Source: an uncultured bacterium (GTDB taxonomy: Bacteria > Patescibacteriota > Minisyncoccia > UBA6257 > 2-01-FULL-56-20). From it: a DNA stretch of 64,000 bases. Location: the NCBI GenBank assembly GCA_963844965.1, contig CAWJQC010000009.1, forward strand, positions 62,037-126,036. The letters run 5' to 3'. Shown here one piece after another: positions 1-63,975 of this stretch; position 1 is the stretch's first letter; every line of letters starts with the position of its first letter. The translations under genes and the position numbers were made by a program. The notes under the pieces are model-generated. The model was not told the DNA's origin. It saw nothing but the letters and a program-made list of their open reading frames with translations, and ran no database searches.

Positions 1-1487
1 TCGTCTTTTTTCCCTCAAAATTCAAGCGTGCAACGACTTCCGCCGCGCACTCGGCAAATTCCCTTACCTCGTTCCATTGGGGCAAAATAAAGTCATTCTG
101 GCGCTCTCCCGCCTCTGGCGGCTTTGGCATCCTGCTTTCCAGTAAAGCAACCCGTGCCCGTAAATCGCTCTTGTATTCCTTCAGCTTCTCCATGCCTATC
201 AGCCCCGCCCCGTATGCCCTGTCATAGCGAGCTTCCTCGTCTTTCAACTTCTCAACGTCCCTTTTGAAATTGAAAATGGATATATCGGGGCGCGCCGCGC
301 TTTCTTTCTTTTTCCCGATAAACTTCTGCGCGTTTTTCATCATCAGTTCCGGCGAAGTCATAATCCCTGCCGTCTTTTTCCATACGAGCGCATCGGCTAT
401 CCTCGCGTTTATTCCCCGCTCGGCGCACTTCGGAGGCAAGGGGAAGCTGTGAACCCTATCCGTGCAGCGATAATAAAGATGTTTCCCGCGCTGCGGGCCT
501 TCTCCGGCCCGCCTTCTCCCGCATCCGCAGTAAATCTTCCCGCTCAAAAGATACTCGTTTTTCCGGTTTCGCTGGCACTCCGCGAAATTTACCGCAAGTT
601 GCCGCGCCGCCCGCTCAAATAATTCTCGGCTGATGAGGGCGGGTGTCGTTATTTTTATCCACTCCTCCTCCGGCCTCACCTTGCGGCTCGTCTTTTTGAT
701 TCTCCGGTAGCCCTCTTTCTTAAACGGATTCTCCGGCACGACGGCATAAGAGCTTCCATAATGCCCTTCGCCTATGTAGGTTTTATTCCTCAAAAGCGTT
801 GAAAGGGTGCTGGTATTCCAAACGCCCCGCGCGCTCCAGCGCGGCGCTATGCCCGCTTTCATAAGCTCCTTCACAACCTGCCGCAAAGTAAGCCCGTCAT
901 CGGCAATCCACGAAAATATCTTTTTAACAACGGTTGCCTCTTGTTCGTTGATTTCATAGCAGCCATGTTTCCCATCCGTTTCTTTTTTCGGCTTAAAAAT
1001 ATAGCCGTAGGGAGCTTCGCTGGTAATAATATGCCCCTCTTTTGCCTTCCGCAGTTTCCCAAGCCGGAAGCGCTCGGCGATTTTCGCCCTCTCATACTCG
1101 GCAAAAAGCCCCCTAACACCGTGCAGGATTTTCTCCTCGCTATTTTTCGGACGGAATGGTAACGAACAATACTTCAACTCCCGCCTCCCGTAGTTCGTCC
1201 ATCACCAATTCCTGATAAGAGTAGCGGCGGGCCAACCTATCTGGGTCATAAATCAAAACCGCTTCCCATATCTTCTTTTTCACGTCCTGCCGGAGCTGGT
1301 CGAGTTGAGGCCGCACGAGCGTGTCCCCGCTCCAGCCGTTATCAATGTATTCCTGCACGATGGTGTAGCCATTTTTCACGGCAAACTCCCGAACGGCGAC
1401 AAGCTGGGTTTCAATAGTGCCTTCATCCGGCGAGGTGCTGACACGGGCGTATATGGCAATCAATTTTATGATGGCGGCTTCGTTCAT
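1..1487 (-). CDS. large serine recombinase (resolvase-type catalytic domain + recombinase domain + Zn ribbon + coiled coil); runs past window start; frame broken at an A5 run near 1140-1160
   Basis: ORF 1140..1487 is a resolvase N-terminal catalytic domain (IAIYARVSTS, catalytic Ser). My manual translation of minus strand 1..1160 in the neighbouring frame is stop-free. It reads ILHGVRGLFAEYERAKIAERFRLGKLRKAKEG...SEAPYGY...GKIYCGCG...HLYYRCTDR, which is a recombinase domain plus Zn ribbon. The frames meet at ccgaaaaatagc; one extra A would fuse them. Confidence 0.8.
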
Positions 1488-9059: not shown

Positions 9060-10328
9060 ATGAATAAAAAAATTGTTTTTACGGCCGCTTCGGCCGCATT
9101 TCTGCTCGTAGTTTTATTGGCAAACGCCCAAATGCCGGTTCCTGCCGCTAATAACGCAGAAGCGTCTGGTGTCGGCACGGTGGCATCGAGCGCAACCGCA
9201 ACGGTTGTTCCTGGAGCCATGAATCCAACTTTTATCATCAACCCGGTATCTCCAACGCTTGGCGGAAGTAATTCTTCGGGAACACCGGTCATGAATCCGC
9301 CGATTATAGCAAGACCCATATTGCCGCCGACGCAGGGCAATAATATTATCCAATTCAACAACCTAACCGTACAAAGCGTTTCGGCAACCACCCCGCCGGC
9401 AGAAATTGTAGCCAATGGCGGTATCTATAACATTCAGAGCGGCGGCACAACACCGCCAACGATGCAGCCGATGAATGCGCAAGTTTTCCCGCAAGCCACG
9501 CAGACATCTTCAATGAATTATTTGCAATCCAAATGTTTGAGGTATGAAAGTTTAGAGTCAAATTCCCCGATGGTAATCGCCTGCCCTGTTCCTCAAACTT
9601 CCGCTCCCGCGAGTTCAACCGTCACTGTCTCGCCCGGAGCAACCGCAATAATGCCAGTAGTGCCACCGATATATCGCGGCGGACAATATCGTCTTGAGGT
9701 ATCCACAACGACCCACCTCATGTTTAATGACCGTACATCGGCGGCATTAACCGATTTCTCGCCCGGCGATCAAATAAACGTTTACGGCATATACAATGAG
9801 GACGGAACCGTAGACGCGCTTATCGTTCGCAATCTTTCCAAGCCGTTCACAAAGCAGTTTGTCCAGCTCAACAACGTTAATTTGGTTTCGGTCTCGGCGA
9901 CAACCACTCCGGCAACGCTTGTGGTCGCGCAGCAAATCGCCAATCCCTGTTACGGTTTCGGCACCGATGGTAACACTAGGCAGGGAGCCATAGCCTGCCC
10001 CACGGGACTGCAATCGTTATCCGACAATGCCGCGTCGCAGAATGTCACGGTGCCGCAAGCCATAATGCCCATTTTCAACCAATCGCGGAAGTATGTGATA
10101 CAAATCGACACGCAAACAATACTGATGGACCGTGAGCGGGGTACACTCGCGCTTGGTGATCTCAAGATTGGTGATCAATTGAATATTTACGGCGCGACGC
10201 TGGACACAAACGGCGCGACGATTAATGCGGATATCGTCCGCGACCTCACGCAACCTCCGGTGGCGCAGAACTACAGTGGCCGCGTTACTCAGGTGAACGC
10301 CGACGGCTCGTTCGTGATTCAGAACTGA
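9060..10328 (+). CDS. secreted repetitive protein with signal peptide; probably continues to about 10448 after a +1 frameshift
   Basis: It starts MNKKIVFTAASAAFLLVVLLANA. The second half shows internal repeats, for example QINVYGIYNEDGTVDALIVRNL and QLNIYGATLDTNGATINADIVRDL. After the stop, the +1 frame reads TDGGETYTVQNPIQVGATVQLKGLL. Confidence 0.5.
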   Translation: MNKKIVFTAASAAFLLVVLLANAQMPVPAANNAEASGVGTVASSATATVVPGAMNPTFIINPVSPTLGGSNSSGTPVMNPPIIARPILPPTQGNNIIQFNNLTVQSVSATTPPAEIVANGGIYNIQSGGTTPPTMQPMNAQVFPQATQTSSMNYLQSKCLRYESLESNSPMVIACPVPQTSAPASSTVTVSPGATAIMPVVPPIYRGGQYRLEVSTTTHLMFNDRTSAALTDFSPGDQINVYGIYNEDGTVDALIVRNLSKPFTKQFVQLNNVNLVSVSATTTPATLVVAQQIANPCYGFGTDGNTRQGAIACPTGLQSLSDNAASQNVTVPQAIMPIFNQSRKYVIQIDTQTILMDRERGTLALGDLKIGDQLNIYGATLDTNGATINADIVRDLTQPPVAQNYSGRVTQVNADGSFVIQN

Positions 10329-10515
10329 CGGCGGCGAAACGTACACGGTGCAAAATCCGATACAAGTCGGCGCGACGGTCCAGCTCAAGGGGTTATTGGA
10401 CCAGCTGCAAAAAATTATATCGCAGGTTTCTCAGATTATATTGCAGTGAATAACGGGCGAGAATCACCCAACCAAAAAAGAAGGCGGAAACTAGGCAACG
10501 TTTCCGCCTTTTGGC

Positions 10516-18484: not shown

Positions 18485-19653
18485 ATGGCAGAGACCAAGA
18501 AGTCAAGAACGGTCAAGAAGAGGGTTGCGACAAGATCAAAGCGAAAGTCCCGAGTTTCCTCTGCGGCGAAGAGAACAAAAAAAACGGCTGGACGCCGACG
18601 TGTTTTGCCGCGCAAACATATTGAACATATCCTGGAGAGATTCCCCGGCAATCCGATCATTCAGCCAAACGCCGAGAACCAGTGGGAAAGCAAAGCGACC
18701 TTCAACCCGGCGGCTCTCCACGACAAAGGAAAAATCCACATCGTCTACAGAGCGATAGGCGACAATGACGTGTCCGTCCTGGGCTACGCCACAAGCACCG
18801 ACGGCACGAACATAGAAGAAAGATTGCCTCATCCAATTTACGCCAAAAAAGTGAGCGCCGCGGACAATTCGGAGCGGTGTCTTCGGGATTTACAATCGCC
18901 GATCTTTTACATTTCGGGGGGCGGCTGGAACGGCGGCTGCGAAGATCCGCGCCTCACGCGCATAGGTGACACCGTCTATATGCTCTACACGGCTTTTGAC
19001 GGCTGGGGGTCGCTCCGAATAGCGCTGACCTCAATAAAGACGAATGACTTCCGCAACAGAATTTGGAAATGGAAAGAACCGGTCCTGATTTCCCCGCCCG
19101 GAGAAATACACAAGAACTGGGTGATTTTCCCGGAGAAAATAAACGGCAAGTTCGCCATCCTGCACAGCATATCGCCGAAAATCATGATTGACTATTTTGA
19201 CGGTTTGGACGACTTAGATAACGGGATTTTCATTCGCAGCCGTTACGGCGGGGAAATGCGAAAAAATAAATGGGACAGCCACCCGCGAGGAGCCGGTCCC
19301 CGCCGATAAAAACGGGATATGGCTGGCTTCTCCTCTATCACGCGATAGACCATAAAGACCCCGGCAAATACAAGCTTGGGGCTATGATTTTAGACCTCAA
19401 AGATCCGACAAAAATCCTTTATCGCTCGAAAAAACCGGTTTTGGAACCGGATGAATATTATGAAAACGAAGGGTTCAAAGCCGGCGTGATATATTCCTGC
19501 GGCGCAGTCGTCGTCAACGGCCGGCTTATCGTTTACTACGGCGGAGCCGACTCGGTAAGCTGCGTGGCCACCGCCAAACTTGACGAATTCCTGAAAGGGC
19601 TCATTTCCGACAAAGAACCGAAACTTACGCGCCTGCAGCGATTAAAAAGCTAA
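18485..19653 (+). CDS. GH130-family glycoside phosphorylase-like protein (single domain) with K/R-rich N-terminal 50 aa; frameshift near 19270-19310
   Basis: PGNPIIQPNAENQWESKATFNPAA...CEDPRLTRIGDTVYMLYTAFDG in ORF 18485..19309 continues as PPIKTGYGWLLLYHAID...YYGGADSV in ORF 19270..19653. Confidence 0.7.
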
Positions 19654-19688: not shown

Positions 19689-21613
19689 ATGTTCGTCTTC
19701 AAACGTTCGGAGGAAAATCCGATATTAATACCGCAAACCGAAAATTTATGGGAAGCTGAGGCAACCTTCAACGGTTGCCCTGTTCCCGACGGGAAAAAAA
19801 CTCATCTCCTCTACCGGGCGGTTTCCTCGGGGCAAATAGTGGACGGAAAAGAAATCAAAATATCTTCCATCGGCTGCGCCCTGTCCGATGACGGCGTGCA
19901 TTTCAAAAACCGCAGGCAGTTTATCAAGCCGGAATACGAATGGGAACGCTTCGGCTGCGAAATCTGCGCGTGACCAAGCTCGGCGACAAATATTATATTT
20001 TCTACACAGCACTTTCCCAGTATCCCTTCAGGGCGGATGGGATAAAGATAGGCGTAGCGATAACGAAGGACTTCAAGAAAATAGACGCGAAGTACCCGGT
20101 GACAACTTTCAATTCAAAAGCGATGGCGCTTTTCCCCGAAAAAATCGGCGGGAAGATCACGGCGGTGCTCACAGTGAACACCGATAAGCCACCGGCCAGA
20201 ATTTGCCTTGCGCAATTCGACAGAGAAGAACAAATCTGGTCCAGCGAATACTGGGAAGAATGGTATGGTAAGCTTGATTACCATGTATTGCCGCTCGCGC
20301 GGAAGTCAACCGACCACACCGAAGTCGGCGCGCCGCCCATTAAAACCAAATATGGATGGCTTCTGATTCTACCATATATTTCCAACTATTTCTTGCCGCC
20401 GCCCATATTCGGCATAGAGGCGGCGCTTCTGGACCTGAAAAATCCGAGAAACATAATTGCCGCAACGACCAGCGCGCTGCTCTACTCGCGCGAAGAATAC
20501 GAGAAATTCGGGAACGTGCCCAATGTCATCTTTCCGTCGGGAGCTCTTGTCAGTCACGGCAATCTCAACTTATATTATGGCGCGGCGGACACAACTTGCG
20601 CTTTAGCCACCGGAAAATTAAACGAGCTGCTGGAAGACCTGCGCTCGAAGCGGCCGCGCGCGGCGCGGCTCAAACGCTTTGCCGGCAACCCGATAATCAA
20701 ACCGAAACCGGAAAGCGCGTGGCAGTCAAAAGCAACTTTCAATCCCGGAGCCATATACGCCGGTGACAAAATACACCTTCTCTACAGAGCCATGGACAAA
20801 GACAACACTTCAACCTTCGGATACGCGGCAAGTTCGGATGGTTACACGATGGATTACCGGCTGCCGCAACCGGTTTACACGCCGCAAGCCGATTTTGAAA
20901 AAAAACTGGTTCCCGGAGCGAATTCCGGCTGCGAAGACCCGCGACTCACGCTCATCGATAAAACGATCTATGTGTGTTACACCGCTTTTGACGGCAAAAA
21001 TCCATGGCGTATAGCTCTGACCTCCATATCGTTGGACGATTTCCTGAGCAGGCGCTGGAACTGGAAACGCCCGGTTCTCATTTCTCCGCCGGGAATTGAC
21101 GACAAAGACGCCGTTCTATTTCCCAAAAAAATTGGCGGCAAATATGTGTTTCTGCACCGCCTTGGCGCGGACATCTGGATAGATTTTGTTGACTCACTGG
21201 AATTTGACGGCAAGAGATGGCTGCAGGGGAAAATAATATTGACGCCGCAATCCGGACCACAGGCCTCAAAAAAAATAGGCACCGGCGGGCCGCCCATAGA
21301 AACAAAGTATGGCTGGCTTCTCATATACCACGGCATATCCAGAGATGAGGACAATCATTACCACCTCCGCGCCGCTCTTTTAGATAAAAAGGATCCTGCC
21401 AAGATTATCGCGAGGACCCACGAACCCATTCTGGAAACCACGGAATATTATGAAAAAGGCGGTAATGTGAACAACGTTGTCTTCACCTGCGGTTCCGTCG
21501 TCGTCAACAACACTCTTTTTGTCTATTACGGCGGCGCGGATACGGTCGTCGGCGTCGCCACGGCGAATTTTGATGATTTTATGAAAAAATTATCCCGCGA
21601 GAAATATGCTTAG
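19689..21613 (+). CDS. tandem double GH130-domain protein; single-nucleotide frameshift near 19945
   Basis: ORF 19689..19973 ends ...EWERFGCEICA*. The next frame continues LRVTKLGDKYYIFYTA. Restoring one nt gives the GH130 motif FGCEDLRVT. Two complete GH130 modules follow, each with GGPPI(K/E)TKYGWLLI and YYGGADT. Confidence 0.7.
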
Positions 21614-25498: not shown

Positions 25499-26806
25499 TC
25501 AAAAATCGAATTTTTGTTCCTTGGTAAATTTCACGAATGCCTCGGCGATTTCGTCCAAGTCGTGGTCAAGCACCTTACGGCCTTTAGAGCCGTGCACATA
25601 ACTACCGTTCGCGTCTTTTTTATAAATATAGTCACCAGAATTATCTTTGCTACCTTTTTTAGAGACCGCCATGAAAATTGGATAATCCTTTTGCGGTTTG
25701 CCAGTGTCGCCGCCCCATTTTTGTAAAAAGAGCACGCTTGTTTTTGTGCCGGTATGCGGCTTGAACGTGTTACCGTGAAGCCCGACGACGGCAAGAATAC
25801 GCGCTTTTTCAAAAAGCCACTCACGGATATATTCCATGTTGGTGTTGTTAAGCACGCCTTGCGGCAGAACGATTGCCAAGCGGCCGCCGGGACGGAGCAT
25901 GTCCAATGCGCGTTCAATAAATAAAATGTGTCGCTCAACGTTATTGCGAAGCTTACCTCCTTCTTTTTTTGCCAGTTCGTACTGGCGCAGAAGTCCCTGC
26001 TCCGGATTTTCTCCGGCGAAGGGCGGATTCGTGAGCAATATATCAAAATTCAAATGCCGATAGGTCAGATGATTTTCCTTGTCGCTTTCGCTATTATCCA
26101 AGGTTTGCAACAGAGGTTTAAGCGCCACGCGTGCTTCTTCCGCCTCCGGACCAGTCCACTCCCGCGAATCCAACGAATCACGTTTGAAAATATGGTGCTT
26201 GCCATCGCCAGCGATAAGCATTAATGCCTGCGATATCCGGCGCATGTTGTCGTCAAAGTCAATGCCAAAAAGATATTTTGCGGCGTAGGATTTTTTCGCC
26301 GCTTCGGTTTTTGAAAAATTGTCCCAGACATGATACATCGCGTGAAGGAGGAATCCGCCAGAGCCGCATGCCGGATCTACCACGTATTCGTTTTCTTTCG
26401 GGCTGAGCATCTTTACGCACATTTTAATGACATGCCGCGGCGTGAAATACTGCCCCTTTTTTCCCTTAGAAACTTCGGTGATGAGATGCTCAAACGCTCC
26501 ATCCACAATCTCGTATTCGCCCTGCCCAAGCTCAAATAAGCGAATATTTTCCACGAACGGCACGCAGATGTTAAGGCGTGCGGCGGTAAGCTTGATTTTA
26601 TCCGATGGTTCGAATGTGTCGGGCCACTCCTTGACCGCTTCCTTAAAAAGCCCGTTTACAACCTCGTAGGTTTTTTCGGCGTCTTTATATCTTCTAAACA
26701 ACACCTCCCTACTTTCCCTTTCTCGGATAGCCATTTGCTCATCGTAGAGCTTGGCGTAAATAAGCTTGAAGATTCTCTTCAAAAACATTACCGCCGGAGC
26801 CGGCAA
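25499..26806 (-). CDS. hsdM: type I restriction-modification N6-adenine DNA methyltransferase HsdM
   Basis: The protein is 435 aa. It has the AdoMet motif VVDPACGSGGFL and the catalytic motif LLTNPPFAG. Confidence 0.9.
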   Translation of the reverse strand: MPAPAVMFLKRIFKLIYAKLYDEQMAIRERESREVLFRRYKDAEKTYEVVNGLFKEAVKEWPDTFEPSDKIKLTAARLNICVPFVENIRLFELGQGEYEIVDGAFEHLITEVSKGKKGQYFTPRHVIKMCVKMLSPKENEYVVDPACGSGGFLLHAMYHVWDNFSKTEAAKKSYAAKYLFGIDFDDNMRRISQALMLIAGDGKHHIFKRDSLDSREWTGPEAEEARVALKPLLQTLDNSESDKENHLTYRHLNFDILLTNPPFAGENPEQGLLRQYELAKKEGGKLRNNVERHILFIERALDMLRPGGRLAIVLPQGVLNNTNMEYIREWLFEKARILAVVGLHGNTFKPHTGTKTSVLFLQKWGGDTGKPQKDYPIFMAVSKKGSKDNSGDYIYKKDANGSYVHGSKGRKVLDHDLDEIAEAFVKFTKEQKFDF

Positions 26807-33676: not shown

Positions 33677-36200
33677 TTAAACCAATACCTTCCTAAGATA
33701 CTGTCCGGTGAAGCTCCCTGCCCTGCGGCTGATTTGCTCCGGCGTGCCTAGGGCGACAATCTTGCCGCCCTTCTCGCCGCCTTCGGGACCGAGATCAACC
33801 ACCCAGTCGGCGCATTTAATAACGTCCAAGTTATGTTCAATCACAACGACCGTGTTGCCGCGGTCAACAAGCTTTTGCAGAACCAAAAGCAGTTTATCCA
33901 CGTCGTCAAAATGTAGGCCGGTCGTCGGCTCGTCCAAAAGATAAAGGGTGCGGCGCGTGTCACGTTTACCGAGCTCCGCCGACAAGTTTCATCCGCTGTG
34001 CCTCGCCGCCGGACAATGTCGTTGCCGACTGGCCAAGCGTCAAGATAGTCCCAAGCCGACCTCTTCCAAAATCAAGAGCTTGTCGTGGAGCCACGGGATA
34101 TCATTGAAGAAATCCACCGCTTCTTCAATCGTCATCTTTAAAATGTCATAAATATTTTTCCCTTTATATTCACACTTCCAGCGTTTCGCGGTCAAACGTT
34201 TTCCCTTGCAAACATCGCAGGTGACGATAGACCGTCGGCAGGAAATGCATTTCAATCGCAATCGTGCCGTGCCCTTCGCAATTTTCACACCGCCCGCCCG
34301 GCACGTTGAAACTGAACCGGCCCGGTTTATATCCGCGGACTCGAGCATCCTCCGTGGCCGCAAAAGATCGCGGATATAAGTCCACGCGCCTACATAAGTC
34401 GCGGGATTTGAACGCGGCGTCCTGCCGATCGGCGACTGGTCAATGTTGATAACACGATTAACATATTCCACGCCCGAGATCGCTTTTATGCCACCCGCTT
34501 TGTAATTGCGCGTGATAAAATTTATCGGCCAGATTTTTATAAAGCACGTCGTATACCAAGCTGATTTACCCGAACCGGAAACGCCGGTGACCGCCGTAAA
34601 ACGCCGGAGCGGGATATCCACGTCAATATTTTTCAGGTTATTCGCGCGTCGCGCCACGAATCTTCAGGAATTCATGCGCTTCGGAGATATTTCCGCTTCG
34701 CGTTTCTGGAACTTCAATGAATTTTTTGCCGCGAAGATATTGCAGCGTGAGCGAATCTTCTTCTTTATCCTTTATGATGTCTGGCAATCGGCCTGTCGGC
34801 TACGATTTTTCCGCCATGAATGCCCGCCCCCGGACCGATATCCACCAAATAATCCGATTCGCTGATTGTTTCCTCGTCGTGCTCAACGACGATGATCGTA
34901 TTCCCCAAATCGCGCAGATTGTGCAGGGTCGCGATCAATTTGGCGTTGTCCCGCTGATGGAGACCGATTGTCGGCTCGTCCAAAATATAGAGCGTGCCTA
35001 CGAGCCGCGAGCCGATCTGCGACGCCAAGCCGAATTCTCTGCGCCTCGCCGCCAGACAGCGTGCCCGCTTTCCTGTCAAGCGTCAGATAATCCAAACCGA
35101 CGTCCATCATGAATTTCAGCCGGCTTTTGATCTCGCGAAGCGGTGCTTCGGCAACGGCCTTCCGCTTTCGCTTTTCAGACTTAAACCTCCGAAAAAATTC
35201 ATAGTGCTTCGTCGATGGAGAAGCGCAGTGACGGAGTTAATATTTTTGTCGTTTACGAGTACGTTCAAGCTTTCTTCCTTGAGCCGCTTGCCTAGGCAGA
35301 CCGGACAGATTTCCTCCGACCAAATATCCTTCGTTCCCAAACCGTGGCAGGCGGGACAAGCGCCGTACGGGCTATTGAACGAAAAAAGTCGCGGCTCAAT
35401 TTCCGGGAAAGAAAAGCCGTCGTGCGGACAGGTGAATTGGGCGGAAAGCGAGACTTCCTTGTCGGTGATAACCGTAACGACGTCGTTGCCGTATTTGAGC
35501 GCCGATTCGATCGCTTCGGCAAGACGCAAACGATTATCCTTATCGCTGAAATCTATTTCCGCCGGCAACCGGTCGACGACAAGCTCAATCGTGTGCTGCT
35601 TATAGCGGCTGAGTTCAATGCGATCGCGCAGTGATTGAAATTTGCCATCTATGCGCACTTCGGAAAAACCGGCGTTCAGAAAATCGTAAAGCATTTGGTA
35701 ATATTCCCCTTTCCTGCCACGCACGACCGGCGCCAAAATCACCAGATTTTTCCCTTCTTTGTCGTTTTTCGCGATATCGATCGCCACATCAACGATTTCC
35801 TCGTTCGTAAGTTTCTTGATTTCCCTGCCGCAGCGCGGGCAGAAAGGTTTGCCGACACGCGCGAAAAGAACACGGAGATAATCATAGATCTCGGTGATGG
35901 TTGCTACCGTGGAGCGTGGATTGGAGGAATGGCTTTTCTGGTCAATGGAAATCGCCGGCGAAAGTCCCTCAATCTCGTCCACGTCAGGTTTGTCCAGACG
36001 TCCCAAAAACTGCCGCGCGTAGGCGGAAAGCGACTCAATGTAGCGCCTTTGTCCTTCGGCGAAAATCGTGTCAAAGGCCAAACTGGACTTGCCGGACCCG
36101 AAAGACCGGTGAAAACTATCATTTTGTCGCGCGGGAGCTCAAGATTAATATTCTTAAGGTTGTGTTCCCGCGCACCTTTTATGATAATTTTGTCATGCAT
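33677..36200 (-). CDS. uvrA: excinuclease ABC subunit A (UvrA), split into at least 5 ORFs by single-nucleotide frameshifts
   Basis: The five ORFs (35904..36200, 35116..36081, 34765..35110, 34040..34657, 33677..33985) together give a colinear UvrA with Walker A, CxxC Zn modules, ABC signature and the second ATPase domain. At Walker A, gggtccgg reads GLSGPAS; adding one t restores [23 protein letters not shown], so this is a homopolymer indel. Confidence 0.85.
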
Positions 36201-36363
36201 AGTAATGTAAATAAGAAAATTGCCCCCGTTCCCAGCTTGCAGGGGGGTCTATAGAGTCAAGTTTAATCTAATCTAATTGACCGAAAAAATCAAATTATCT
36301 ATACTAAGGGCGGCACATTAGCAACAGAAAAGTGGATTACCACCGTGCCAAAGGAGGCAATTT

Positions 36364-36888
36364 ATGGGTAAGAACGAAAAAAACACGGACGGATCTTGCG
36401 GATGGAGTTATCACAGAAAACTGGGTCAAATCGCAAAATTTATGAAAATTCTGGGTGTCCTGCTCCTTCTGACTCTGAGAACTATCCCCGCATGGGCAGC
36501 GCTCGGTCAGTACGAGTCGTCAGTAAGTGTGGACCAGCAGTATCTGCGCAGCGAGGACCGCGTCCAGAACTTCCAGGGTTACAAAATTCACCAGCTAACG
36601 ACTGCGAACGGCACAATAATTCGAGAGTACGTCTCGCCGAAAGGTCTGGTCTTTGGAGTCGCCTGGCAGGCGCCCTTTATGCCCAACATGCAGCAGTTGT
36701 TGGGGTCATACGTTACGAACCTCCAGACAGCCTCGCGAACTCAGACCCAGGTCCGGCACCTCAGGGGACTGATCGTGAAAATGAATGATTTCGTGTTCGT
36801 CAGCGGCGGTCACATGCGGTTTTGGAAGGGAAGCGCCTACGTGCCCAGCCTAGTTCCCAACAACGTCTCCGTGGAGGTGGTGCGATGA
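36364..36888 (+). CDS. secreted hypothetical protein (DUF2844-like, recalled), partner of the downstream lipoprotein
   Basis: The probable start is MKILGVLLLLTLRTIPAWA, a signal peptide. The GC content is visibly higher than the flanks. Its stop overlaps the next ATG as ATGA. Confidence 0.45.
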   Translation: MGKNEKNTDGSCGWSYHRKLGQIAKFMKILGVLLLLTLRTIPAWAALGQYESSVSVDQQYLRSEDRVQNFQGYKIHQLTTANGTIIREYVSPKGLVFGVAWQAPFMPNMQQLLGSYVTNLQTASRTQTQVRHLRGLIVKMNDFVFVSGGHMRFWKGSAYVPSLVPNNVSVEVVR

Positions 36889-38224
36889 CTCTGGTAAATT
36901 GTTCGAAAGCAACATTAGCCTGCTTTCTTGCAGTAGTCACGGGACTGATCCTTTTGGATGGTTGCGGCAACAATAATAGCAACAGCAACATTATCAGTAC
37001 ACCTCCTCCGCCTACGAGTAATACAGCGCCAGTAACGGTCGGCTTTGGGGTCTTGGGACCGTCGGGTGGATATGTGAATGGGATTTGGACGACGGTGACC
37101 ATCTGTGCACCCAGCAGTACCACCAATTGCCAGACGGTCAATGATGTACTCGTGGACACAGGTTCCTTCGGCCTACGCGTTCTCAACTCAGCGCTCACCA
37201 CCGTTCCAGCGAGCTCGCTGGGAACGATTACGAGCAACGGCAGTCAGTTGCAGGAATGTGTCCAGTATGGGGACACAGCCTATACTTGGGGACCTGTGAT
37301 GCTGGCGGATGTTGGGATTGAGGGAGAGAAGGCCTCCTCAATTCCTATTCAGGTCATTGGAGGCAATTCATTCGATGTCCCTGGTGCTTGCACCGCAATC
37401 CCAATTAACCCCGGTCTTCCAAATGCGGGCAACGACGATACCTTAGACGCGCTTGGCGCCAACGGGATCCTGGGTGTCGGCGGTTACGCATGGGACTGCG
37501 GCCCTACTGCGAGAACGTTGTTGCTGGTGACCCCTATTACCTTTGTCCCAGCGGCCAATGCGAGCAAGTCGGGGTTCCACTCCAGTATCAAGTCACAAGC
37601 CCGGTCGCAGCGTTTTCCTCGTCGGATAACAATGGAGTGTTAATCACCCTGACGTCCATTTCGGCGAGCGGAGCTGCCGATGGGACGGTTTCTGGCTCGT
37701 TGATTTTTGGAATCGGAACCCAAACTGACAACGCCCTCGCTGGTAGCGCCACGGTTTATGGGGTCGACGAGTACGGCAACATTCCAGAGATTACCTACAA
37801 CGATTTCCAATACACCCCTCCCAACAACACGAACATCTTAGATACCGGATCGAATGCGATCTATTTTCTGGACGCCAACACCCTGGCCTCGGCTGGAATT
37901 ATCGAGTGCGCGGATGCCCCGGGTTTCTATTGTCCAAACAATACTATTCCGTTCACTACAACCTTTTCGGGCGCGAACGGCACATCGGGGGCGATAACGT
38001 TCAGCATTGCGGATGCGAATATATTGTTCGCAAGCGGCAACGCGGCGTTCAACGACTTGGGAGGCGATGGTGGCACCAGCCCTTCTAATGATAGTTTGGA
38101 CTTCGGATTGCCATTTTTCTTCGGTAAGAGCGTGTACGTCGGAATGATGCCGGGATTGTTCACGGGTGAGAGCGCTGCGCCAAGCGCCGCGACAAGCGCG
38201 ACGTACGGATATTACGCGTTTTAG
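36885..38224 (+). CDS. pepsin-like (A1-type) aspartic peptidase lipoprotein; frameshift near 37500
   Basis: Lipobox LILLDGC. The first catalytic motif is VLVDTGSFGLRV. The flap is ECVQYGDTAY (Tyr-Gly). The second motif is NILDTGSNAIYF, found in ORF 37490..38224. The two ORFs join colinearly. Confidence 0.55.
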
Positions 38225-38328
38225 CACCTGCACCGGAATACCCTACTCGCTTCGGACTGACGGTAGAACAAGAAACTCTACTTTTCCGTTTCCGCCAAAC
38301 CAAGCACGCAGACAACTGCGTGCTTTTT

Positions 38329-39958: not shown

Positions 39959-39967
39959 CCGCGCGTT

Positions 39968-41100
39968 TTACTTCGCTTTTGGCAGATAATTTCTTAACGT
40001 CCGAATCGTATTATCATAAGTCGAGCGGTCAATCGGGTACGGCGTGGCGTCCTTACCGCCGAAGGCGAAACTATAGCGCGCCGGGTCTTCGTAGGACGGC
40101 TTCGCTCCATAAATCATTTCCGCGACGAGAGCCAAAGCACGCACCGTTTTCGGACCGACTCCTTCCGTTGCCAGAAACTTTTCGTAATTTTCCGGTTTCC
40201 CATCGCAAAGCTGCCAAAATATTTTCTGGAGATATTTGCTCTTCGCGAAATCCTCCGTCACAACCGGATGGGAATAAAATTCCTTATTTTCCAGATTCAA
40301 AAGCGAAAGTTGTCTACCATTTATGTCCCGTAAGCGGGCCATCTGTGAAACAGGCGTGTAATATTTTTCCAGCAATAAAATATCTTTCATCAGCGTTTTC
40401 CAGCCCTGCGACAGCAGGTCCACGCTGACTTCGCGCGTTTTACCGCTTTTCGCGGCGGTAAGATTCAAAACCGACGGCATTTTGAGCTGGCTCATGATCC
40501 CGGAGTGCGGTTCGTTTATCAAATCTTTGGAACTTGCGGAATGCCAGTGGTAGCGCCGCGCCGTCTGATTATTTTGATTCATCCCCTGCTGCACGACAGT
40601 CCAGGCACCACCACGAGTGAAAATAAAACTGTGATGGTAAATCTGAAATCCGTCCTGGATGAGCGAACTGTCAACCTTGGCCGTCATCCGCGAATTATAG
40701 ACCAGGTGCTCGGCTTGCGGCGCAGGCAGTCCCAGCCGGTCGCCCCACAAAAGAATTTCGTCGGGTGTTTTGCGCGACGTCTTTCCCTTGCCGCCGCAGA
40801 TAAAAATTCCCAAATCACGCTCCTCGCCGCGAATCGCTTCCTTGAGCGCCGCCGTGAGCACTGTCGTGAGCCCCGAGGCGTTCCAGTCAAATGCCAGAAC
40901 GGTTCCCAATGACTGGAACCAAACCGGGTCGCCGAGCCGCCGGACTAGCGCCTCCGTTCCTCTTCGGCAACAATCGCTCGCACCATAATCCGTCCCAGTT
41001 TCACCATCCGCTCAAAAAGCCAGCGGGGGCATTTGCCGTAATCAAGAGTAAAGGTTGCTATACCGCGATGAATCATAACTATATTCTAACAATTGTCCCC
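39968..41100 (-). CDS. DUF763-like protein; frameshift near 40960
   Basis: ORF 39968..40909 contains ATEGVGPKTVRALALVAEMIYGAKPSYEDPARYSFAFGGKDATPYPIDR. Manual translation upstream gives MIHRGIATFTLDYGKCPRWLFERMVKLGRIMVRAIVAEE in another frame. Confidence 0.5.
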
Positions 41101-42232: not shown

Positions 42233-44319
42233 TTACTGACTCGCTGTGAGCGTGAGTACGTTTCCCGTCGCACCGCCCGATGAGGCTGACGTGCTCGAGG
42301 TCAGGCCCTGCAAGTTCGCCGTGCTCTCGGCGACAAGAGCGCCGACGACAGAAACGAAGCTGGCAGTTGACTTGATGTCGGCCTTAAGCGAGAGAACGCG
42401 GGTCGTGTTCGCCGGGAGTATGTAGTTGATCGGCGAAGTGTTCGTACCGAAACAGTCAACATAGACACCGCTCGTCGCGCCCGAAGCGCCGTTCGTCGTA
42501 CAAGTGTTGCCACTCGGAGGCGTATTGATGGTCGTGCCGAACTGGCCGCCAGCGTCGTCGATTATGGCGACGTTGCCGATCTGATAGGGCAACATCGCGC
42601 TCGTAAGCGTTGAGGAGCCGAAGGTGAGCTTGAAGTCAAGGAATTTGACTTTCACCGCTTCGCCGCCGGCGTAGAACGCGAACTTGGCGATAGTCACACC
42701 GGACTGACCCGGACCAAGTTTCCGGTCGGGGTGTCACCGGACTGCGAAATGGAAACCTGAAGAGCGAGCGGTCCGGCAATCGTGATGTTCTGACCGGAAA
42801 CCGCATTTGTGATTGCGATTATGCCAGAAGATATCGCGCCTATTCCCGAAAGGCCCGTAAGAATCGTCGCCGGAGAAACCGATGTGCTCATCGGTGCCGA
42901 GGATGAAATGTCCGCGTAAACATTCACGTAAACGGTACCACCAGCAGGAACCGTGAATGGCGTGCCTGAAAATGTATAACTCGTTCCCACGGCCACCGTA
43001 CCTTGCGTTAAACCAAACTGGACACCATTAACCGTAATCTTCAAGTTCTGAAACAGCGACCCAGAAAATACATTGGAATTGCCAGCTTGGATGCTCACAT
43101 TATTTATCTTTACGCTCTCAACAGAAGATGCCGTCAAAGCATATGAACCGATTTTAGCGTTAAATGATCCGGGGACGACGGTCAGCGACCCAAGACCGTT
43201 GTTCTGCGCAACCGTCAAGCTGCCAATTGGTGCGGCCTGCGTCGTGAACGAATACTCAACGCTTACCCCCTCGTTGCCGTTGTTGTCCGTTGAAGCGACT
43301 TTAAAGTAGTAGGTCGTGCTAAAGTTCAAATTCGATAGCGCAACGCTGTGCGTGTAGCTGCCGCCACTGGAAACCGTCCCCGCGTTACTGACCGGAGCGA
43401 AGTAAGACCCGGATATCGTTCCAAAATACACCTCGCTGTTCCCGTATTCATTTGTCGTCCACGTGATGGTTGCCGCATTTTGGGTGACATTTATCGCCTG
43501 CACATTTGTTATGACAGGCTGGTTGTTGCCCGTAGAAACAGGTTGCGTAACCGAGACGTTCACGGTTACGCTCGCCGACACGGAACCGCCCGCACCGGAA
43601 CACGAGAGGGAATATGTTTGCGAGGTAGTAAGATTGCCGGTGCTTTGATTACCCGAAGTGCCTGACCATCCAGAAGGAGAGACATTGCAGTAATTGGCGC
43701 TTGTCGAACTCCATGTGATTATAGCAGCGGTGTCATAGGGAATGGCGACCGAGCCTGCGGAGCTGTTCGCCATAATACTCGCCGTAGGTACTGGCGTCGA
43801 TTGCGGAGACGGCGTTGTATTCTGCTGAATCTGCTGGAGGGTCTGATTTGCCTGCTGTTGTGCCGCTAACTGCTTCTGTAATAGGGCGACTTGTTGCAGG
43901 AGCAAATTCAGTTGCGCCTGCAGAGAATTATTAATGTCATTCGTAGTTGCGGGCGGCGTTGGAGTTGGCGGCGTTGAACTGGTTTCCGAAATCGCCTGCG
44001 CGTTGGATGCCTGAAGCTGTTGCGACAATATCGCGTTCGCTTTTGCTCTTGTAAGCGGGCCGAAATATCCCGCGGCCGGGGTTATGCCTTGGGCAACCTG
44101 AAACTGTTTGACTCCCGCGAGCGTCAGGGAAAAGAAATTGCCGCTGATTGGTCCGGAGTATACGCCTTGAGACGTTAGAAATTCCTGGAGTTGCTTAACG
44201 TCCGAATCTCCTTGGATTCCATAGTAGAGGTCATAGTCAAATGTTTGCGCAAAAACCCGAACGCCGCCGCACAGAAAGAGTGTGACAGCCAACACCAAAA
44301 CCAAGTATCTTTTTTTCAT
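42233..44319 (-). CDS. secreted cell-surface protein, paralog of 6301..8118 (shared N-terminal 200 aa), Fn3/Ig-like Thr/Ser-rich repeats; two ORFs joined at a GTGA overlap
   Basis: MKKRYLVLVLAVTLFL signal peptide, the same PG-binding-like and Q-rich coiled-coil region, then a variable C-terminus. ORF 42233..42697 starts at a GTG that overlaps the TGA of 42694..44319. Confidence 0.6.
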
Positions 44320-44420: not shown

Positions 44421-45504
44421 TTACCACGATTTCCGATTTGTTCCGAAGCGCGTTGGCGGGCCCCATGTTCCCGCGCCGCTTGAAGTGTAAATAGTCATAT
44501 CTCCGGACTTTCCGAAACCGTGATAATGCTTTCCGTATATCAGACGCGAAATAAGATTTATCGGAAACATCTGGCCCTGGTGCGTGTGCCCCGAAAGCGC
44601 GAACGAAATTCCCGCGCGCTCCGCGATATCCAGCTTTGTCGGCTCGTGCTTCAGTAAAATACTCGGCCGCGTTTTGTCTATTCCCAAATTATTCAAGATC
44701 CCCTCAAATCTCTTCCTATTCGTTGCATCCATATAATCCACGCCTACAAGCTCTAACCCGTCAAGCTCAACCTTTTCGTTGTACAGAACCCTGATTCCGG
44801 CGCGCCTCACCGCCTCTATATATTTTGTTTTATCGCTAAACTCCTCGTGATTGCCGGTAATGAAATAAATCCCCCGCGCAACAAGGACATCTCGAAGCGG
44901 CGAAATCAAATCGTCCAAGTCCGCAGCCACGCCGTCATAGAGATCGCCGCCGATTAAAACCGTCTCCGGCTTTAATGTCTGAATCAAGCTGGAAATTTTC
45001 CCGGCAAATTTTTTCCCGCGCACGTTACCAAGATGCAAGTCGCTCATAAAAACCACATGTTTTCCCTTCCAGAGGTCGGGTAAATTCTGAAGTTTAACGG
45101 AAAATCTGGTAATTTCCACATCATGCGCATGAAAAACGCCGTACAGATAAACAATGATCGAAATGCCGAAAACAATCGCGCCCCAGATTCTCACTGAAAT
45201 AGAACGCGAACAATCGGCTGACAGCGACGCCAGAAAAGAAAACCAGCGCGCCCAAAAACAGAAAATACGCCGCCGCAAGCCAATAAGCGCTCGCGGCGTA
45301 AAATTTCCGCACAAATGAATTTGAATATCTGGAAGCCAGGACAGACGCCGGCACAAAGGTGAGGGACAAAACCATGAACAATATCCTGAGCGGAGCCACG
45401 TTCTCCAAGGCGAAAGCTGAAGCCAGCGCGTTCCAAACAAAAAGATGCACCAAGCTCAGAAATATCTGCACTATGACAACGATTATAACGAAAATAACGG
45501 CCAT
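44421..45504 (-). CDS. membrane-anchored metallophosphoesterase (calcineurin-like); frameshift near 45150-45200
   Basis: FMSDLHLGN...LIGGDLYDG...ITGNHEE...SGHTHQGQ. The multi-TM N-terminus is in ORF 45121..45504 in another frame. Confidence 0.75.
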
Positions 45505-46780: not shown

Positions 46781-48926
46781 TTAACTCGCGCTTTGCGCTT
46801 TTCCGCCACGGGAAAACTCCCGTTTTCCCGACCCCTTTCCCGCGCGAGTTAGCAGTAATTTCAATGATTTTATCTCATCGCGAAGGATTGCCGCCAATTC
46901 AAAATCTAAGCGCTTTGCCGCTTCGCGCATTTCCTTTTCTTTTTCGGCAATCAGTTTCTGCAACGCGGTCTTGGACTTCGGTATCGGCTTCAGTTCCAAC
47001 GCCAGCATCTCATCAACATTCGGCAGAATATCGGAGATTTTTTTCTCTATCGTCTTCGGCGTAATATGGTGTTTTTTATTGTATTCAAACTGAAGTTTGC
47101 GCCGGCGTTCGGTTTCGGCCACCGCGCGTTTGATTGAACCGGTGATGTAATCGGCATAGATCAAAACTTCGCCGTTAACATTACGCGACGCTCTGCCAAT
47201 CGTCTGTATAAGCGACGTTTCACTTCGCAAAAATCCTTCTTTGTCGGCGTCCAAAATCGCCACAAGCGAGACCTCCGGCAGGTCCAACCCTTCGCGCAGG
47301 AGGTTGACGCCTACGAGCACATCAAATCCGCCGCGCACGCCGGAACCTTTGCGCAAATTAGTCAGAATCCTTATACGGTCAAGCGTTTTTACGTCGCTAT
47401 GCAAGTAAGTCACGTTGATTTTCTTTTCCTCCAGATAGGCCGCGAGGTCTTCCGCCATTCTTTTGGTTAGTGTGGTCACGAGAACTCGTTCCTTGTTCCT
47501 AACCCGTTCCTCCATGCGCGGGATTAAGTCATCAATCTGTCCGCGCGCCGGCCGCATGGTAATTTTGGGGTCAACCAAACCGGTGGGACGGATGATTTGC
47601 TCCACCGTTTGCGCGCTTTTTTTGCGCTCGTCAGCGGTCCGGCGTCGCCGAAGTATAAACGACCTGCCTGACTTTCGCTTCAAATTCCGGGAATTTCAGC
47701 GGCCTGTTATCTATCGCGGACGGCAGGCGAAAACCGTATTCAACCAGCGTCTTTTTGCGCGATGCGTCGCCCTCGTACATCCCTTGAATTTGCGGAACGG
47801 TCATGTGCGATTCATCAATAACCGTCAAAAAGTCCGGCGCGCCCGAATCGGTCCGCGGAAAGTAGTCCAAAAGAGTGTCCGGCGGCTCGCCCGCGGCGCG
47901 GCCCGACAAATGCCGCGAATAATTTTCAATCCCGTGGCAGTAGCCGACTTCCCGCATCATGGCGATGTCAAACTTCGTGCGCCGTTCAAGACGCTCGGCT
48001 TCAAGCAATTTGCCGCTCTTTTCAAAATATGCGAGCCGTCCCTTCAATTCTTCCAAAATCGCGGCAATTGCCCGTTCACGTTCCGGCGCCTCGGTTATGA
48101 AGTGCTTTGCCGGCGCTACGTAAATCTCGCGCAGTGTCGGCATTTTGTCCGGCTGAAACCCTACGACGGGGTCAACTTCGTAGATTTTTTTGATTATTTT
48201 TTCGCTGGCCGATCCGGATTTTACCGAAGAATGTTCTAGTTCAAAATTGTAAACTACTTCCTTGTCCGGCGGCATAATTTCCCAGTTATCGCCGCGCAAA
48301 CGGTATGTCCCGCGTTTCAGGTCGGAATTAGTCCGCGTAAACTGAAGCGAAACGAGTTTCCGCGCGAACTCTTCGCGTTTTATTTTGTCGCCGACTTTAA
48401 AGTGAAAAATGTTCTGTGCGTAAACTTCGGGCGCGCCCAAGCCATAGATACAGGAAACAGAAGCGACAACAATCACATCGCGCCGCGTTAGGAGCGCTGT
48501 TGTCGCCGCGTGGCGGAGCTTGTCTATCTCGTCGTTAATCAGCGCCTCCTTGTCTATGTAGGTGTCGCTAGACGGAATATACGCTTCCGGCTGGTAATAA
48601 TCGTAATAGGAAACGAAATAATTGACGGAATTTTTCGGAAAAAGTTCACGGAATTCGTTCGTAAGCTGCGCCGCCAGGGTTTTGTTGTGAGCGATAACGA
48701 GCGTCGGCTTCTGGATTTCCGCGATAACGTTCGCCACGGTAAATGTCTTACCGCTCCCCGTAACACCCAAAAGCGTCTGGTCTCTGTACCCTCTTTGCAG
48801 ACCGGAAACAAGCGACTTAATCGCCTTTGGCTGGTCGCCTGACGACTTGTATTTGGATATGATTTGAAAATTGTTCATTGAAAATTGTGCGGTCTGAAAC
48901 CCAAACGCCCCTCGGTCCGTAGCCAT
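46781..48926 (-). CDS. uvrB: excinuclease ABC subunit B (UvrB); frameshift near 47631-47683
   Basis: ORF 47631..48926 holds the N-terminal helicase domain ([15 protein letters not shown]). ORF 46781..47683 holds helicase C and the UVR motif ([16 protein letters not shown]). They are colinear. Confidence 0.9.
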
Positions 48927-59370: not shown

Positions 59371-59800
59371 TTAAGCAATTGCGGCCAAATTTCCGTTTAG
59401 GCAAACAGCGTCCATGGCCTCGATCTCTTCCATATAAGGAAGCCCTGCGGGCATTCCATTCAATAAAAATATCTTTTTGTGATTTACGTATGCCTGCCCC
59501 ATTTCCATAAGAACGTTGCCGCCGATATAATTTTTGACGCCATTCTTGTTGTGGTTAACGATAAGAACTGCGTCGCTTGCCAGGATGTTTTTGTAATGGT
59601 CGTGAAAATAATTCCTTTCTCTCTTAATGGCGGCTTCTTCGCCCTTGCGCCAGCGGTCAATGATATCCGCTTTGTCGCCGCGGGCGAACGCTTCATAGTC
59701 TGGATGAATCCAGCCGTCATAACCCAGAGCGCACAATTGATCTTTACAATTGACCATTTCCTTATAGAAATGACTGCTGCCGAGAACATAGATTCTTCAT
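59371..59800 (-). CDS. hypothetical Rossmann-like protein (nucleoside 2-deoxyribosyltransferase-like?); start region frameshifted
   Basis: ORF 59371..59757, with upstream frame RIYVLGSSHFYKEM. Deleting one A from atgaagaatc gives ATG AGA ATC = MRIYVLGSS. Confidence 0.35.
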
Positions 59801-60224: not shown

Positions 60225-61109
60225 TGAGGCATTGGTTGAACGCGGCAACTTCGCCGTTATACGCCGATACATCATCCTTAACCTGGACCACAAGCGTATT
60301 GTAACTGGCAACCAGTTGATTGTATTGGTCAACATCTTGATCATAAGTTGTGCGTTCCCCGGACGTCTGGAGATTAATGTTATCAATCTCCGCTTTCAGC
60401 GTTTGTAAATTATTCTGCATACTTTGCAGCTCGTTTTGTCCGGCATCAATCTTCGCTTTGAGCGTATCGTCAACCGCCGGACAGGAAGACGCCGGCTTGC
60501 CGAAGATCCGCACCCGATCCAGGCGGAGTGGCCCGCGTAGTTTCCTTCCTTTACGGCCACACCGATTTCTTGATACTTAGTATTCAAGATGTTGGCGCGG
60601 TGGCCGGGACTGTTCATCCACGCCGTCACAAGGTCTTCGTCGCCGGAAAAATCGCCGAGCGCCAAATTCTCCCCGAGGGCGATATAATCATAGCCAACTT
60701 CTTTCGCAACGCTCTCGGCGCTGGAACCAGTCGGAGAAACGTGGGCGAAGTACTGGTTCTTGAACATATCGGCAAGCCGCAAAGCGGCGATCTCGTCCAG
60801 CTCCGAATTTTCGGCGAGCGGCGGCAGGGCTCCGTTATTTCTCCTCTCCGTGTTCGTCCACTTTATTGTTCCCGCAATCGTCAGCTTTGCCGCGACCGTC
60901 GCGGTCGACGTGGAAGTTTTCTTTGGGACAACAAGCGGAGGCGGTGTGTTTACCTGCTTCCTGACCTCTTCAACCGCAGTGTTAACGGCCGTTTTTTCAA
61001 AACTCGCGAGCCGCGGAGAAAAATAATTGAAAATGCTCGCGCGGTAGAAAAAAATGAGCGCGATTGCGAGAAGAAGCGACAAATAAAAAATAAACTTGAA
61101 CTTTTTCAT
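60217..61109 (-). CDS. secreted CAP/SCP/PR1-like (YkwD-type) protein with C-terminal coiled-coil extension; frameshift near 60400-60510
   Basis: Signal peptide. DEIAALRLADMFKNQYFAHVSP...GENLALG...WMNSPGHRANIL...EIGVAV are CAP-domain motifs. ORF 60217..60513 continues colinearly. Confidence 0.6.
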
Positions 61110-61720: not shown

Positions 61721-62771
61721 TTAAATCTTCACAACTTCCTCCCACGGCAGACCCGGTTTGCCGAAATGGCCGTAAGCGGCCGTTTGCAAATATATCGGTC
61801 TGCGCAGATTCAACCGTTCAATGATCGCCGCTGGACGAAAATCAAAATTTTTCTTAACGACGACGGCCAGGCTCTCCCCTTTCTCGTTCACCGCCTCCAC
61901 CATCAACGGCTCTGCTCTGCCGATGGCGTAAGCAACCGAAATCATGCATTCCTTCGCCAAACCGTTCGCCACGACATTTTTCGCGGCGAACCGCGCCATA
62001 TAGGCCGCCGAGCGGTCAACTTTTGTCGGGTCTTTGCCGGAAAAACAGCCGCCGCCGTGCGGAATCAGACCGCCGTAGGTGTCAACCATGATTTTCCTGC
62101 CAGTTAAGCCGGTATCGGCGTCAAAGCCGCCCTGCACGAAGCGTCCGGTGGGATTCACCAGTATTTCAATGCCGGAAATGTCTCCAACCGCCGGCGCTAT
62201 AAGGCCGCGGGTAAGTTCGTTTTTTATAAAGTCATGGCTAACCGACTCGTCGTGTTGAGCACCTACCAAAATCGTTCTGAACCGGCCATTCTCAACCGTC
62301 ACCTGGGTTTTTCCGTCCGGCCGCAACCAGGAGAATTTTTTGTCGGTTCTGCGCAATTTTTCCAGACCGGATGCGAGCTTATGAACGAGCACGACCGCTT
62401 TAGGCAGAAACTCCGGCGTCTCCTCGGTCGCATAGCCATACATTATTCCCTGGTCGCCGGTCTCCGCCAGTGTCAACTCCCATAGCGATATCGGGTGATT
62501 GCTTCGCGATATTCACTATGAATCTCAAAGCGCTTTCATAGCCGATATCGCGATACAATTTTTTTGCGATTGCCTCGGCGTTGAAATCCGCCGCGGTTGT
62601 CACCTCGCCTCCCACAACGAGCAAGCCGTGCGAGCCGAAAGATTCCACGGCGACGCGGGATTTCGGGTCCTGCCGCAGGCATTCATCCAGCACGGCGTCC
62701 GAAATCTGATCGCAAACTTTGTCCGGATGGCCGGAAGTAACGCTTTCCACCGTATATGTTTTGGAAGTCAT
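61721..62771 (-). CDS. metK: S-adenosylmethionine synthetase; frameshift near 62400-62476
   Basis: The N-terminus MTSKTYTVESVTSGHPDKVCDQISDAVLD is in ORF 62400..62876. ORF 61721..62476 carries GDQGIMYGYA...GGGCFSGKDPTKVDRSAAY... Confidence 0.9.
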
Positions 62772-63656: not shown

Positions 63657-63975
63657 TCATGTTATCCGCGAGCCGGGAGGAACTTCCCGTTCAACCGTCA
63701 GAACCACGGGCTTGCCGTCTTCATCGTGCGCCGCGAGCAGCATACCATTGGATTCCAGACCCATCAGCGCGCGCGGTTCCATGTTCGCCACGATTGCGAT
63801 TTCCTTTCCAACCAGCGCCTCCGGCTCGTAAACTTTGCCCACGCCGGCAACAAGCTGCCGCGTCTCGTCGCCCAAACTTATCTGGAGTTTAAGCAACTTT
63901 TCCACCCAGCTATGCGCTCCGCCGCGAGAACCTTCGCGACCCGCAGCTCAATTTTGTCAAAATCATCTATGGTCA
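63657..63975 (-). CDS. stand-alone tRNA-binding domain protein (CsaA / MetRS C-terminal OB-fold like); frameshift near 63905
   Basis: Manual translation from 63975 gives MTIDDFDKIELRVAKVLAAERIAGW. ORF 63657..63905 continues with VGKEIAIVANMEPRALMGLESNGMLLAA. Confidence 0.5.

Follow-up and report, generated by a model that had tools for sequence, protein, structure and literature searches.

Indels that remain in the consensus of long-read assemblies fragment genes, and do so more at low coverage (PMC9262707; PMC12007338; PMC8812927). For Nanopore and PacBio assemblies and MAGs, the IDEEL test gives a measure of this fragmentation, and tools such as Kastor or proovframe correct it (PMC9262707, PMC12007338). 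Errors that persist after short-read polishing were described in the Polypolish paper as lying in repeats where short reads mis-map (PMC8812927). We analyzed a stretch of 64,000 nucleotides from a bacterial contig, referred to here as the window, in which about 30 events break reading frames, each by exactly ±1 nt (Table 1). Very probably, the genes are intact, and the breaks are single-base errors that an error-prone metagenome assembly left in its consensus. The assembly would most likely be a long-read, Flye-type product from a Parcubacteria (Liptonbacteria/Wolfebacteria-like) population, and the organism's own uvrA, uvrB, metK, and other genes would be unbroken.

The most heavily affected gene is uvrA, which is made up of at least eight ORF pieces spread over all three frames. 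A public protein search was run with the longest UvrA piece (321 aa, positions 35116-36081), which matches PF17760. The best matches have 79%–87% identity and carry names such as Liptonbacteria, Wolfebacteria, and Parcubacteria; judging from these matches, the host is a Patescibacteria/Parcubacteria bacterium. Frame changes were counted using a custom protein-to-DNA aligner that permits one- and two-base skips, with the intact UvrA proteins of four short-read MAG relatives (L002, L003, L004, and L005) as references. Between 666 and 686 residues are identical among the 832–845 aligned, and each reference requires 12–14 frame changes, with 14–15 in the union of all four (9–11 one-base insertions versus 4–5 one-base deletions). 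The earlier note was right that the gene is broken, but its count of at least four breaks is therefore a large underestimate. Frameshift-aware alignment with the four references produced no in-frame stops in the corrected protein. Both Walker A motifs are present (GL(S)GSGKSS and GVSGSGK(S)S), the TLSGGEAQR motif occurs twice, and there are CPxC/CxxC clusters. The corrected protein has the composition of a UvrA, with two ABC ATPase modules (Walker A and LSGGE in each), an interaction domain, and zinc-binding Cys clusters.

Table 1. Frame changes and affected genes in the window (positions are those of the window)
Feature	Positions	Strand	Change	Evidence
uvrA (excinuclease ABC subunit A)	33683..36200	minus	about 845 codons, one gene after frame correction	
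Error-dense patch in uvrA	33982..35222	minus	13–14 frame changes of one base each over 1.24 kb (indel rate about 1.1%)	alignment and scoring
uvrA event 1	36100..36101	minus	1-nt deletion, first Walker A (GL-S-GSGKSS; GGGTCCGG)	all four references
uvrA event 2	35220..35222	minus	1-nt insertion (CTTCTCC; TT or single C)	alignment and restoration scoring
uvrA event 3	35204..35205	minus	1-nt insertion, non-repeated base (GCACTAT)	alignment and restoration scoring
uvrA event 4	35026..35031	minus	1-nt insertion directly past first LSGGE signature (between QRIR and LASQ)	alignment and scoring
uvrA event 5	34794..34799 (about 34796)	minus	1-nt insertion, variable linker, base placement uncertain	alignment and scoring
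uvrA event 6	34646..34650 (about 34647)	minus	1-nt insertion within CGCGCG, no homopolymer	alignment and scoring
uvrA event 7	34563..34564	minus	1-nt deletion, second Walker A (GSGK-S-SL)	alignment
uvrA event 8	34508..34520 (about 34511)	minus	1-nt insertion, variable segment, placed to about 12 nt	alignment and scoring
uvrA event 9	34365..34366	minus	1-nt deletion adjoining T4 run (GATCTTTTGCGG)	alignment
uvrA event 10	34226..34227	minus	1-nt insertion, non-repeated base (TATCGTC)	alignment and scoring; restoration gives family consensus PTVYVTCD
uvrA event 11	34197..34198	minus	1-nt deletion, T run (CGTTTGACC, T4 expected)	L004 and L005 references; frame of ORF 34170-34385
uvrA event 12	34172..34173	minus	1-nt insertion in GTGTG, no homopolymer	alignment and scoring
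uvrA events 13-14	34038..34048	minus	two 1-nt insertions, non-repeated bases (GGA[C]TAT, GAC[G]CTT), or one deletion	two insertions (34048, 34038) by L002 alignment; one deletion by L003, L004, and L005
uvrA event 15	33982..33986 (about 33985)	minus	1-nt insertion directly past second LSGGE signature (between QRMK and LSAE)	alignment and scoring
Large serine recombinase	1139..1151	minus	1-nt insertion, A5 run (A4 expected)	Resolvase HMM 1-100 (ORF 1143-1499) and 106-144 (ORF 2-1201); frames
Secreted repeat protein	10320..10329	plus	probable 1-nt insertion (CAGAACTGAC)	frame reading only
GH130 gene 1	19295..19305	plus	1-nt deletion, C run (C4 here, C5 expected; GAGPPPIKT)	GH130 HMM 29-175 and 220-316; frames
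GH130 gene 2	19957..19968	plus	1-nt deletion (GCGAAATCTGCG)	frames; N fragment matches GH130 domain start, E=4e-12
HSDR_N_2 + N6_Mtase methylase	26768..26780	minus	probable 1-nt insertion (about 26778)	Pfam on adjacent overlapping ORFs; junction frames NVFEE, then IFKLIYAKLYDE; split rests on domains and frame reading
DUF3443 protein (earlier called aspartic protease)	37500..37510	plus	1-nt deletion (GGCCCTACTGC)	DUF3443 HMM 3-157 and 154-353; frames
DUF763 protein	40954..40965	minus	1-nt deletion (GAAGAGGAACGG, G3 expected)	DUF763 HMM 1-36 and 35-319; L005 orthologue alignment
Large secreted PG_binding/fn3 protein	42704..42715	minus	probable 1-nt deletion (about 42710)	frame reading only
Metallophosphoesterase	44443..45237	minus	insertion at about 45237 (T runs) and deletion at about 44444 (A run)	intact 390-aa L083 orthologue; Metallophos HMM 2-190
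uvrB	47630..47642	minus	single 1-nt insertion near 47637 (CCGGACCGCTGAC)	three intact UvrB orthologues (494–542 identical among 662–671 aligned)
Rossmann-like gene	59787..59800	minus	1-nt insertion directly past start codon (ATGAAGAATCTATG)	frame reading only; no Pfam match
CAP-domain protein	60508..60520	minus	1-nt deletion, G run, near domain end	CAP HMM 5-108 of 117 (ORF 60399-61112); frames
metK	62453..62468	minus	1-nt insertion directly before GDQG motif	S-AdoMet_synt_N (ORF 62403-62876), then M and C domains (ORF 61724-62512); frames
tRNA-binding-domain protein	63897..63910	minus	1-nt deletion near N terminus	motif search and frame reading

Indels aside, the uvrA coding sequence carries the marks of normal purifying selection. 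Between the corrected protein and its four closest relatives, identity is 78%–85%, and among those relatives it is 77%–82% over the same segments; for the error-dense C-terminal part the corresponding values are 78%–80% and 77%–79%. When aligned with 68 intact UvrAs, it deviates at one of the 253 columns conserved at 95% or more, and the four closest relatives deviate at 1–2. The deviation falls in the dense patch (1 of 154 columns; 0–2 in the relatives), with none among the 99 columns of the N-terminal part. Residues unique to the window's UvrA number 10 of 823, versus 6–17 in intact relatives, and those within the patch 10 of 503, versus 4–12. No substitution excess was detectable in the patch using the family alignment. 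With 252 of the 253 near-invariant positions kept, no stops, and unique residues as in the orthologues, the earlier advice to read the split genes as intact is well founded.

These values bear on whether uvrA and a dozen others, including metK, have truly been inactivated in a bacterium with a reduced genome. Reduced genomes are typical of Patescibacteria, and uvrA bears many independent lesions, like an old pseudogene. However, drift sufficient for 14–15 indels should also bring many substitutions and stops, and the corrected UvrA shows no excess; neither an excess of nonsynonymous changes nor the nonsense codons of relaxed constraint were found. Indels in bacterial pseudogenes are reportedly varied in length and biased toward deletion (Mira, Ochman and Moran 2001 are said to have found this), whereas every event here is 1 nt and those in uvrA are mostly insertions. 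Relatives retain an intact uvrA, and related error-prone contigs are damaged at different sites. Genuine pseudogenization is thus very improbable. It is also very improbable that the uvrA patch is real and represents a very recent, insertion-biased burst of frameshifts, with nucleotide excision repair lost before substitutions had accumulated.

Species-representative genomes yielded 80 uvrA loci when scanned. Seven relatives were checked, four of them the closest short-read MAGs and another the complete genome of Minisyncoccus, and each encodes UvrA in a single unbroken ORF of 857–920 codons. No conspecific genome was identified in the collections searched, in which uvrA relatives have at most about 76%–78% DNA identity. 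ENA assemblies ERZ25039472 and ERZ25039521 contributed three related contigs, all with Flye-style names (contig_NNNNN). Two of the three contain ±1 shifts at positions other than those in the window: one (L001) has a uvrB with seven deletions and one stop and a uvrA with two insertions, and the other (L083) has a uvrA with one insertion and one deletion. Independent relatives therefore lack the lesions, with seven intact copies of uvrA on one side and error-prone sister contigs damaged at other residues on the other. The earlier preference for a sequencing artifact over decay is borne out by the restriction to ±1-nt events, the involvement of metK, uvrA, and uvrB, the intact short-read relatives, and the damage elsewhere in the sister contigs. 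The broken 321-aa UvrA piece has already been deposited in public collections as a protein from a 126-kb contig in NCBI and ENA; the breaks therefore stand in the public record.

Events are unevenly spread, a pattern that had not been noticed in the earlier note. The uvrA gene makes up 3.9% of the window, yet it contains 14–15 of the roughly 30 events (Poisson P = 1.9e-12 for at least 15 events in uvrA, given about 29 in the window). Most are confined to a patch in the C-terminal two thirds of the gene, where they are about 25 times as dense as elsewhere in the contig, and an event-free gap of 880 nt separates this patch from the Walker A deletion at 36101. No event was found in six conserved neighbor genes (4.9 kb aligned) or in the ATP synthase a, b, alpha, gamma, and beta genes of the window. 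Outside uvrA there are about 15 events over 61.5 kb, with insertions about as frequent as deletions, and at least 14 genes have one or two each. Two error regimes are superimposed: a scattered background of about 15 events per 61.5 kb, balanced in sign and mostly in runs of 2–5 identical bases, and a patch regime of 13–14 events in 1.24 kb, consisting mainly of insertions, many at non-repeated bases. The simplest cause of the patch would be a consensus built from very few reads, or one that polishing missed.

A different origin for the patch, which we regard as possible but doubtful, is a consensus of mixed populations, in which reads from related, co-occurring Parcubacteria were recruited to the conserved uvrA and the polisher or partial-order consensus converted allelic differences into spurious one-base insertions. 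This would itself be a form of assembly error, alternative to simple low depth. Dense patches occur in very conserved genes (uvrA in the window, uvrB in L001), several related populations are present in the same ENA assemblies, and the absence of a substitution excess is unlike a consensus at the level of raw reads. However, uvrB and the ATP synthase genes of the window are just as conserved and almost free of events, and a near-identical second sequence was not found in the collections searched. Most insertions outside homopolymers can be interpreted as the base of a third codon position accompanied by an alternative synonymous base, but this doublet reading is largely forced by the aligner, and a rough chance rate of 0.4–0.7 per event makes five of seven unremarkable. 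A reading in which each insertion records the two alleles of a synonymous SNP was considered and judged to be largely an artifact of where the aligner places its skips.

Homopolymer length was considered separately for the two sets of events. Scattered events lie mostly in runs of 2–5 identical bases, such as C5 to C4 in the first GH130 gene, G4 to G3 in the CAP-domain gene, and G3 to G2 in the DUF763 gene, with further short-run fits in the recombinase (A4 to A5) and the phosphoesterase (T and A runs). For insertions in uvrA, all single-base restorations were scored against the family alignment, except that 34048 and 34038 were judged by eye. At least 5–7 of the 11 are at bases with no identical neighbor (35204, 34646, about 34511, 34226, and 34172, plus 34048 and 34038 by eye), and no uvrA insertion falls within three or more identical bases. 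Most scattered events thus alter, or are compatible with altering, a run of identical bases, and those in uvrA do not do so consistently. The run-length spectrum of the window shows no homopolymer compression: counted per 10 kb, it does not differ from those of Illumina MAG relatives with comparable G+C. The earlier attribution to homopolymer indels holds for most scattered events; given the insertions at non-repeated bases and the uncompressed spectrum, it therefore describes the background and not uvrA. The first Walker A motif, cited earlier as a demonstrable homopolymer case, has indeed lost one base, but the site fits either TT to T or GGGG to GGG and is compatible with a short run without lying demonstrably in one. 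The insertion bias in uvrA, its non-repeated bases, and the lack of a substitution excess run counter to a plain signature of homopolymer deletion.

Among the genes of the window is one for a type I restriction-modification methylase, and systematic base-calling errors at DNA-modification motifs are a further, unlikely, source of the events. Two or three events can be restored to AGATCT, and GGTCCGG/CCGGACC occurs at three events (13 copies in the window, with about 0.1 expected at events). However, unbroken ORFs hold 10 of the 12 AGAATCT/AGATTCT sites and 10 of the 13 GGTCCGG sites, most uvrA events have no common motif, the restorations are ambiguous, and the motifs were found post hoc. A scan of k-mers near events gave a best 5-mer with an uncorrected P value of 1.8e-4 in 512 tests, and no shared motif survived correction. 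Enrichment of GGACC/GGTCCGG was rejected as a cause, being post hoc and non-significant once corrected. The idea of methylation errors at GATC/AGATCT was likewise dropped, its support being weak because most AGAATCT/AGATTCT sites are in unbroken ORFs.

The earlier count of at least 14 affected genes was confirmed and can be extended with two probable splits that were missing from that list, in the methylase and in the large secreted PG_binding/fn3 protein. Pfam coordinates or orthologues identify colinear splits in uvrA, uvrB, metK, both GH130 genes, and the DUF3443, DUF763, recombinase, and phosphoesterase genes. Colinear continuation in the adjacent frame, earlier claimed for every case, is thus backed by profiles or orthologues for most genes; four splits (the CAP tail, the Rossmann-like start, the tRNA-binding protein, and the secreted protein at 10325) were identified by frame reading only. 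The recombinase had been described as having A5 in place of A6, which is incorrect: the frames need one base removed, and A6 misfits. A whole-window frame map based on codon usage (Viterbi) was abandoned, since the bias was too weak and a third of real genes were called non-coding; homology and profile checks were used. Searches for tRNAs and Rfam families identified no RNA genes in the window that could serve as independent witnesses of damage.

Continuation of the same protein in an adjacent frame also resembles a recoding site, where programmed ribosomal frameshifting or transcriptional slippage would restore the frame in vivo. Tracts of A9–A10 support slippage, but no event is in a run longer than five, and A/T runs in the window reach at most eight, short of that length. 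Recoding would have to act at 14–15 sites within a single gene, in both directions and without a common slippery motif, and the ORFs of orthologues are continuous at all of these sites, with none conserved as a shift site. We consider the probability of recoding to be negligible.

Nothing here is biologically novel, and the value of the result is practical. Genes that almost certainly function will be annotated as fragments or "pseudogenes" on this contig, and probably throughout the MAG and on the sister contigs of the same ENA assemblies. Inferences of gene loss or missing pathways in the lineage, such as "no UvrABC repair" or "no SAM synthetase," would be in error. The errors are patchy and the worst patch is not linked to homopolymers; therefore, a correction limited to homopolymers leaves uvrA unrepaired. 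Its repair needs read-based polishing or reference-guided frame correction.

The window can be compared with four kinds of frameshifted sequence. In endosymbionts, frameshifted genes are reportedly rescued by transcriptional slippage at long poly(A) tracts (an observation said to come from Tamas et al. 2008). Essential genes are apparently frameshifted in the window as well, but its events are outside long A tracts, lack a motif, and are not conserved. As in the true pseudogenes generally known from Mycobacterium leprae and recent endosymbionts, uvrA has multiple frame disruptions; unlike them, it has no stops, substitution excess, or deletion bias, its events are 1 nt only, and its near-invariant residues are kept. 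The residual errors described for Polypolish share the patchiness seen here, with most of the window clean, but they occur in repeats and uvrA is single-copy in the window. Compared with long-read indel errors, the uvrA patch differs in being mostly insertions, largely non-homopolymer, and about 25-fold denser, and the global run-length spectrum is uncompressed. In other respects the window resembles such errors: conserved genes, housekeeping genes included, are split by one-base indels into colinear ORFs, the scattered events are in short homopolymers, and sister contigs with Flye-style names are similarly damaged.

Among the UvrA sequences deposited for Patescibacteria, many cover just a piece of the protein. 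A public protein search was made with a 321-aa piece of the broken uvrA (35116-36081, minus strand), and its best 120 matches were all shorter than 562 aa, whereas UvrA in this clade has ~860-920 aa. Some of these short matches are frameshift fragments on long contigs (L001 and L083, related contigs from ENA assemblies). Others are probably truncated at contig ends, or else the short lengths are a property of the search. On another related contig, L082 (ENA ERZ25039472 contig_69134), the uvrA alignment (5968-7343) ends after residue 275, with ~590 nt left to the contig end. This early end suggests either that the gene is disrupted on a larger scale or that the end of the contig is misassembled.

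Sequence context was compared at the single-nucleotide frame changes that split uvrA and other genes. Three of them (47636, 36092, and 42709) lie at GGTCCGG/CCGGACC, and only 13 copies of GGTCCGG occur in the whole window. This association was found post hoc and may reflect either a context-dependent error or chance. GATC occurs 124 times, compared with ~248 expected from base composition, and CTAG (27) and GTAC (75) are likewise scarce across the window. No tRNA genes and no matches to Rfam families were found in the 64-kb window.

Coordinates of the other features are collected in the table. The second and third GH130 domains share a single 573-codon ORF and are joined by a short linker (…LNELLEDLRSKRPRAARLKRFAGNPII…), with neither a stop nor a start between them. 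Two readings of the shared ORF are a natural fusion of two domains and a further hidden error. A LexA-type repressor (S24 peptidase) adjoins the restriction-modification locus, and the G+C minimum of the window falls within this locus (0.39 at 24-26 kb). G+C is also lower (0.42-0.45) in the two long ORFs that follow the serine recombinase, and an integrated mobile element may account for this stretch, recombinase included. The HNH endonuclease ORF is interposed between atpA and atpG within the ATP synthase operon.

Features of the window (positions in nt)
Feature	Position	Strand
Large serine recombinase at the window start, then a 512-codon ORF and a 611-codon ORF	1-8200	
Three tandem GH130 (mannoside phosphorylase-like) domains	18479-21610	+
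Restriction-modification locus: type I specificity subunit, Cthe_2314-like HEPN protein, HSDR_N_2 + N6_Mtase methylase	23466-28095	-
Between uvrA and uvrB: DUF2844-DUF3443 pair, DUF763, rhodanese-like protein, large secreted protein, phosphoesterase, GNAT acetyltransferase		
F-type ATP synthase operon (a, b, delta, alpha, gamma, beta), intact, otherwise standard	52640-59370	
ORF with HNH endonuclease domain (PF01844)	55029-55631	-

Gene order around uvrA (33683-48881) differs from that in the three closest short-read relatives (L003, L004, and L005). The genes between uvrA and uvrB include a rhodanese-like protein, which was named from its translation only. The gap between uvrA and uvrB is 10.6 kb in the window, whereas in these three relatives uvrB is directly upstream of uvrA.
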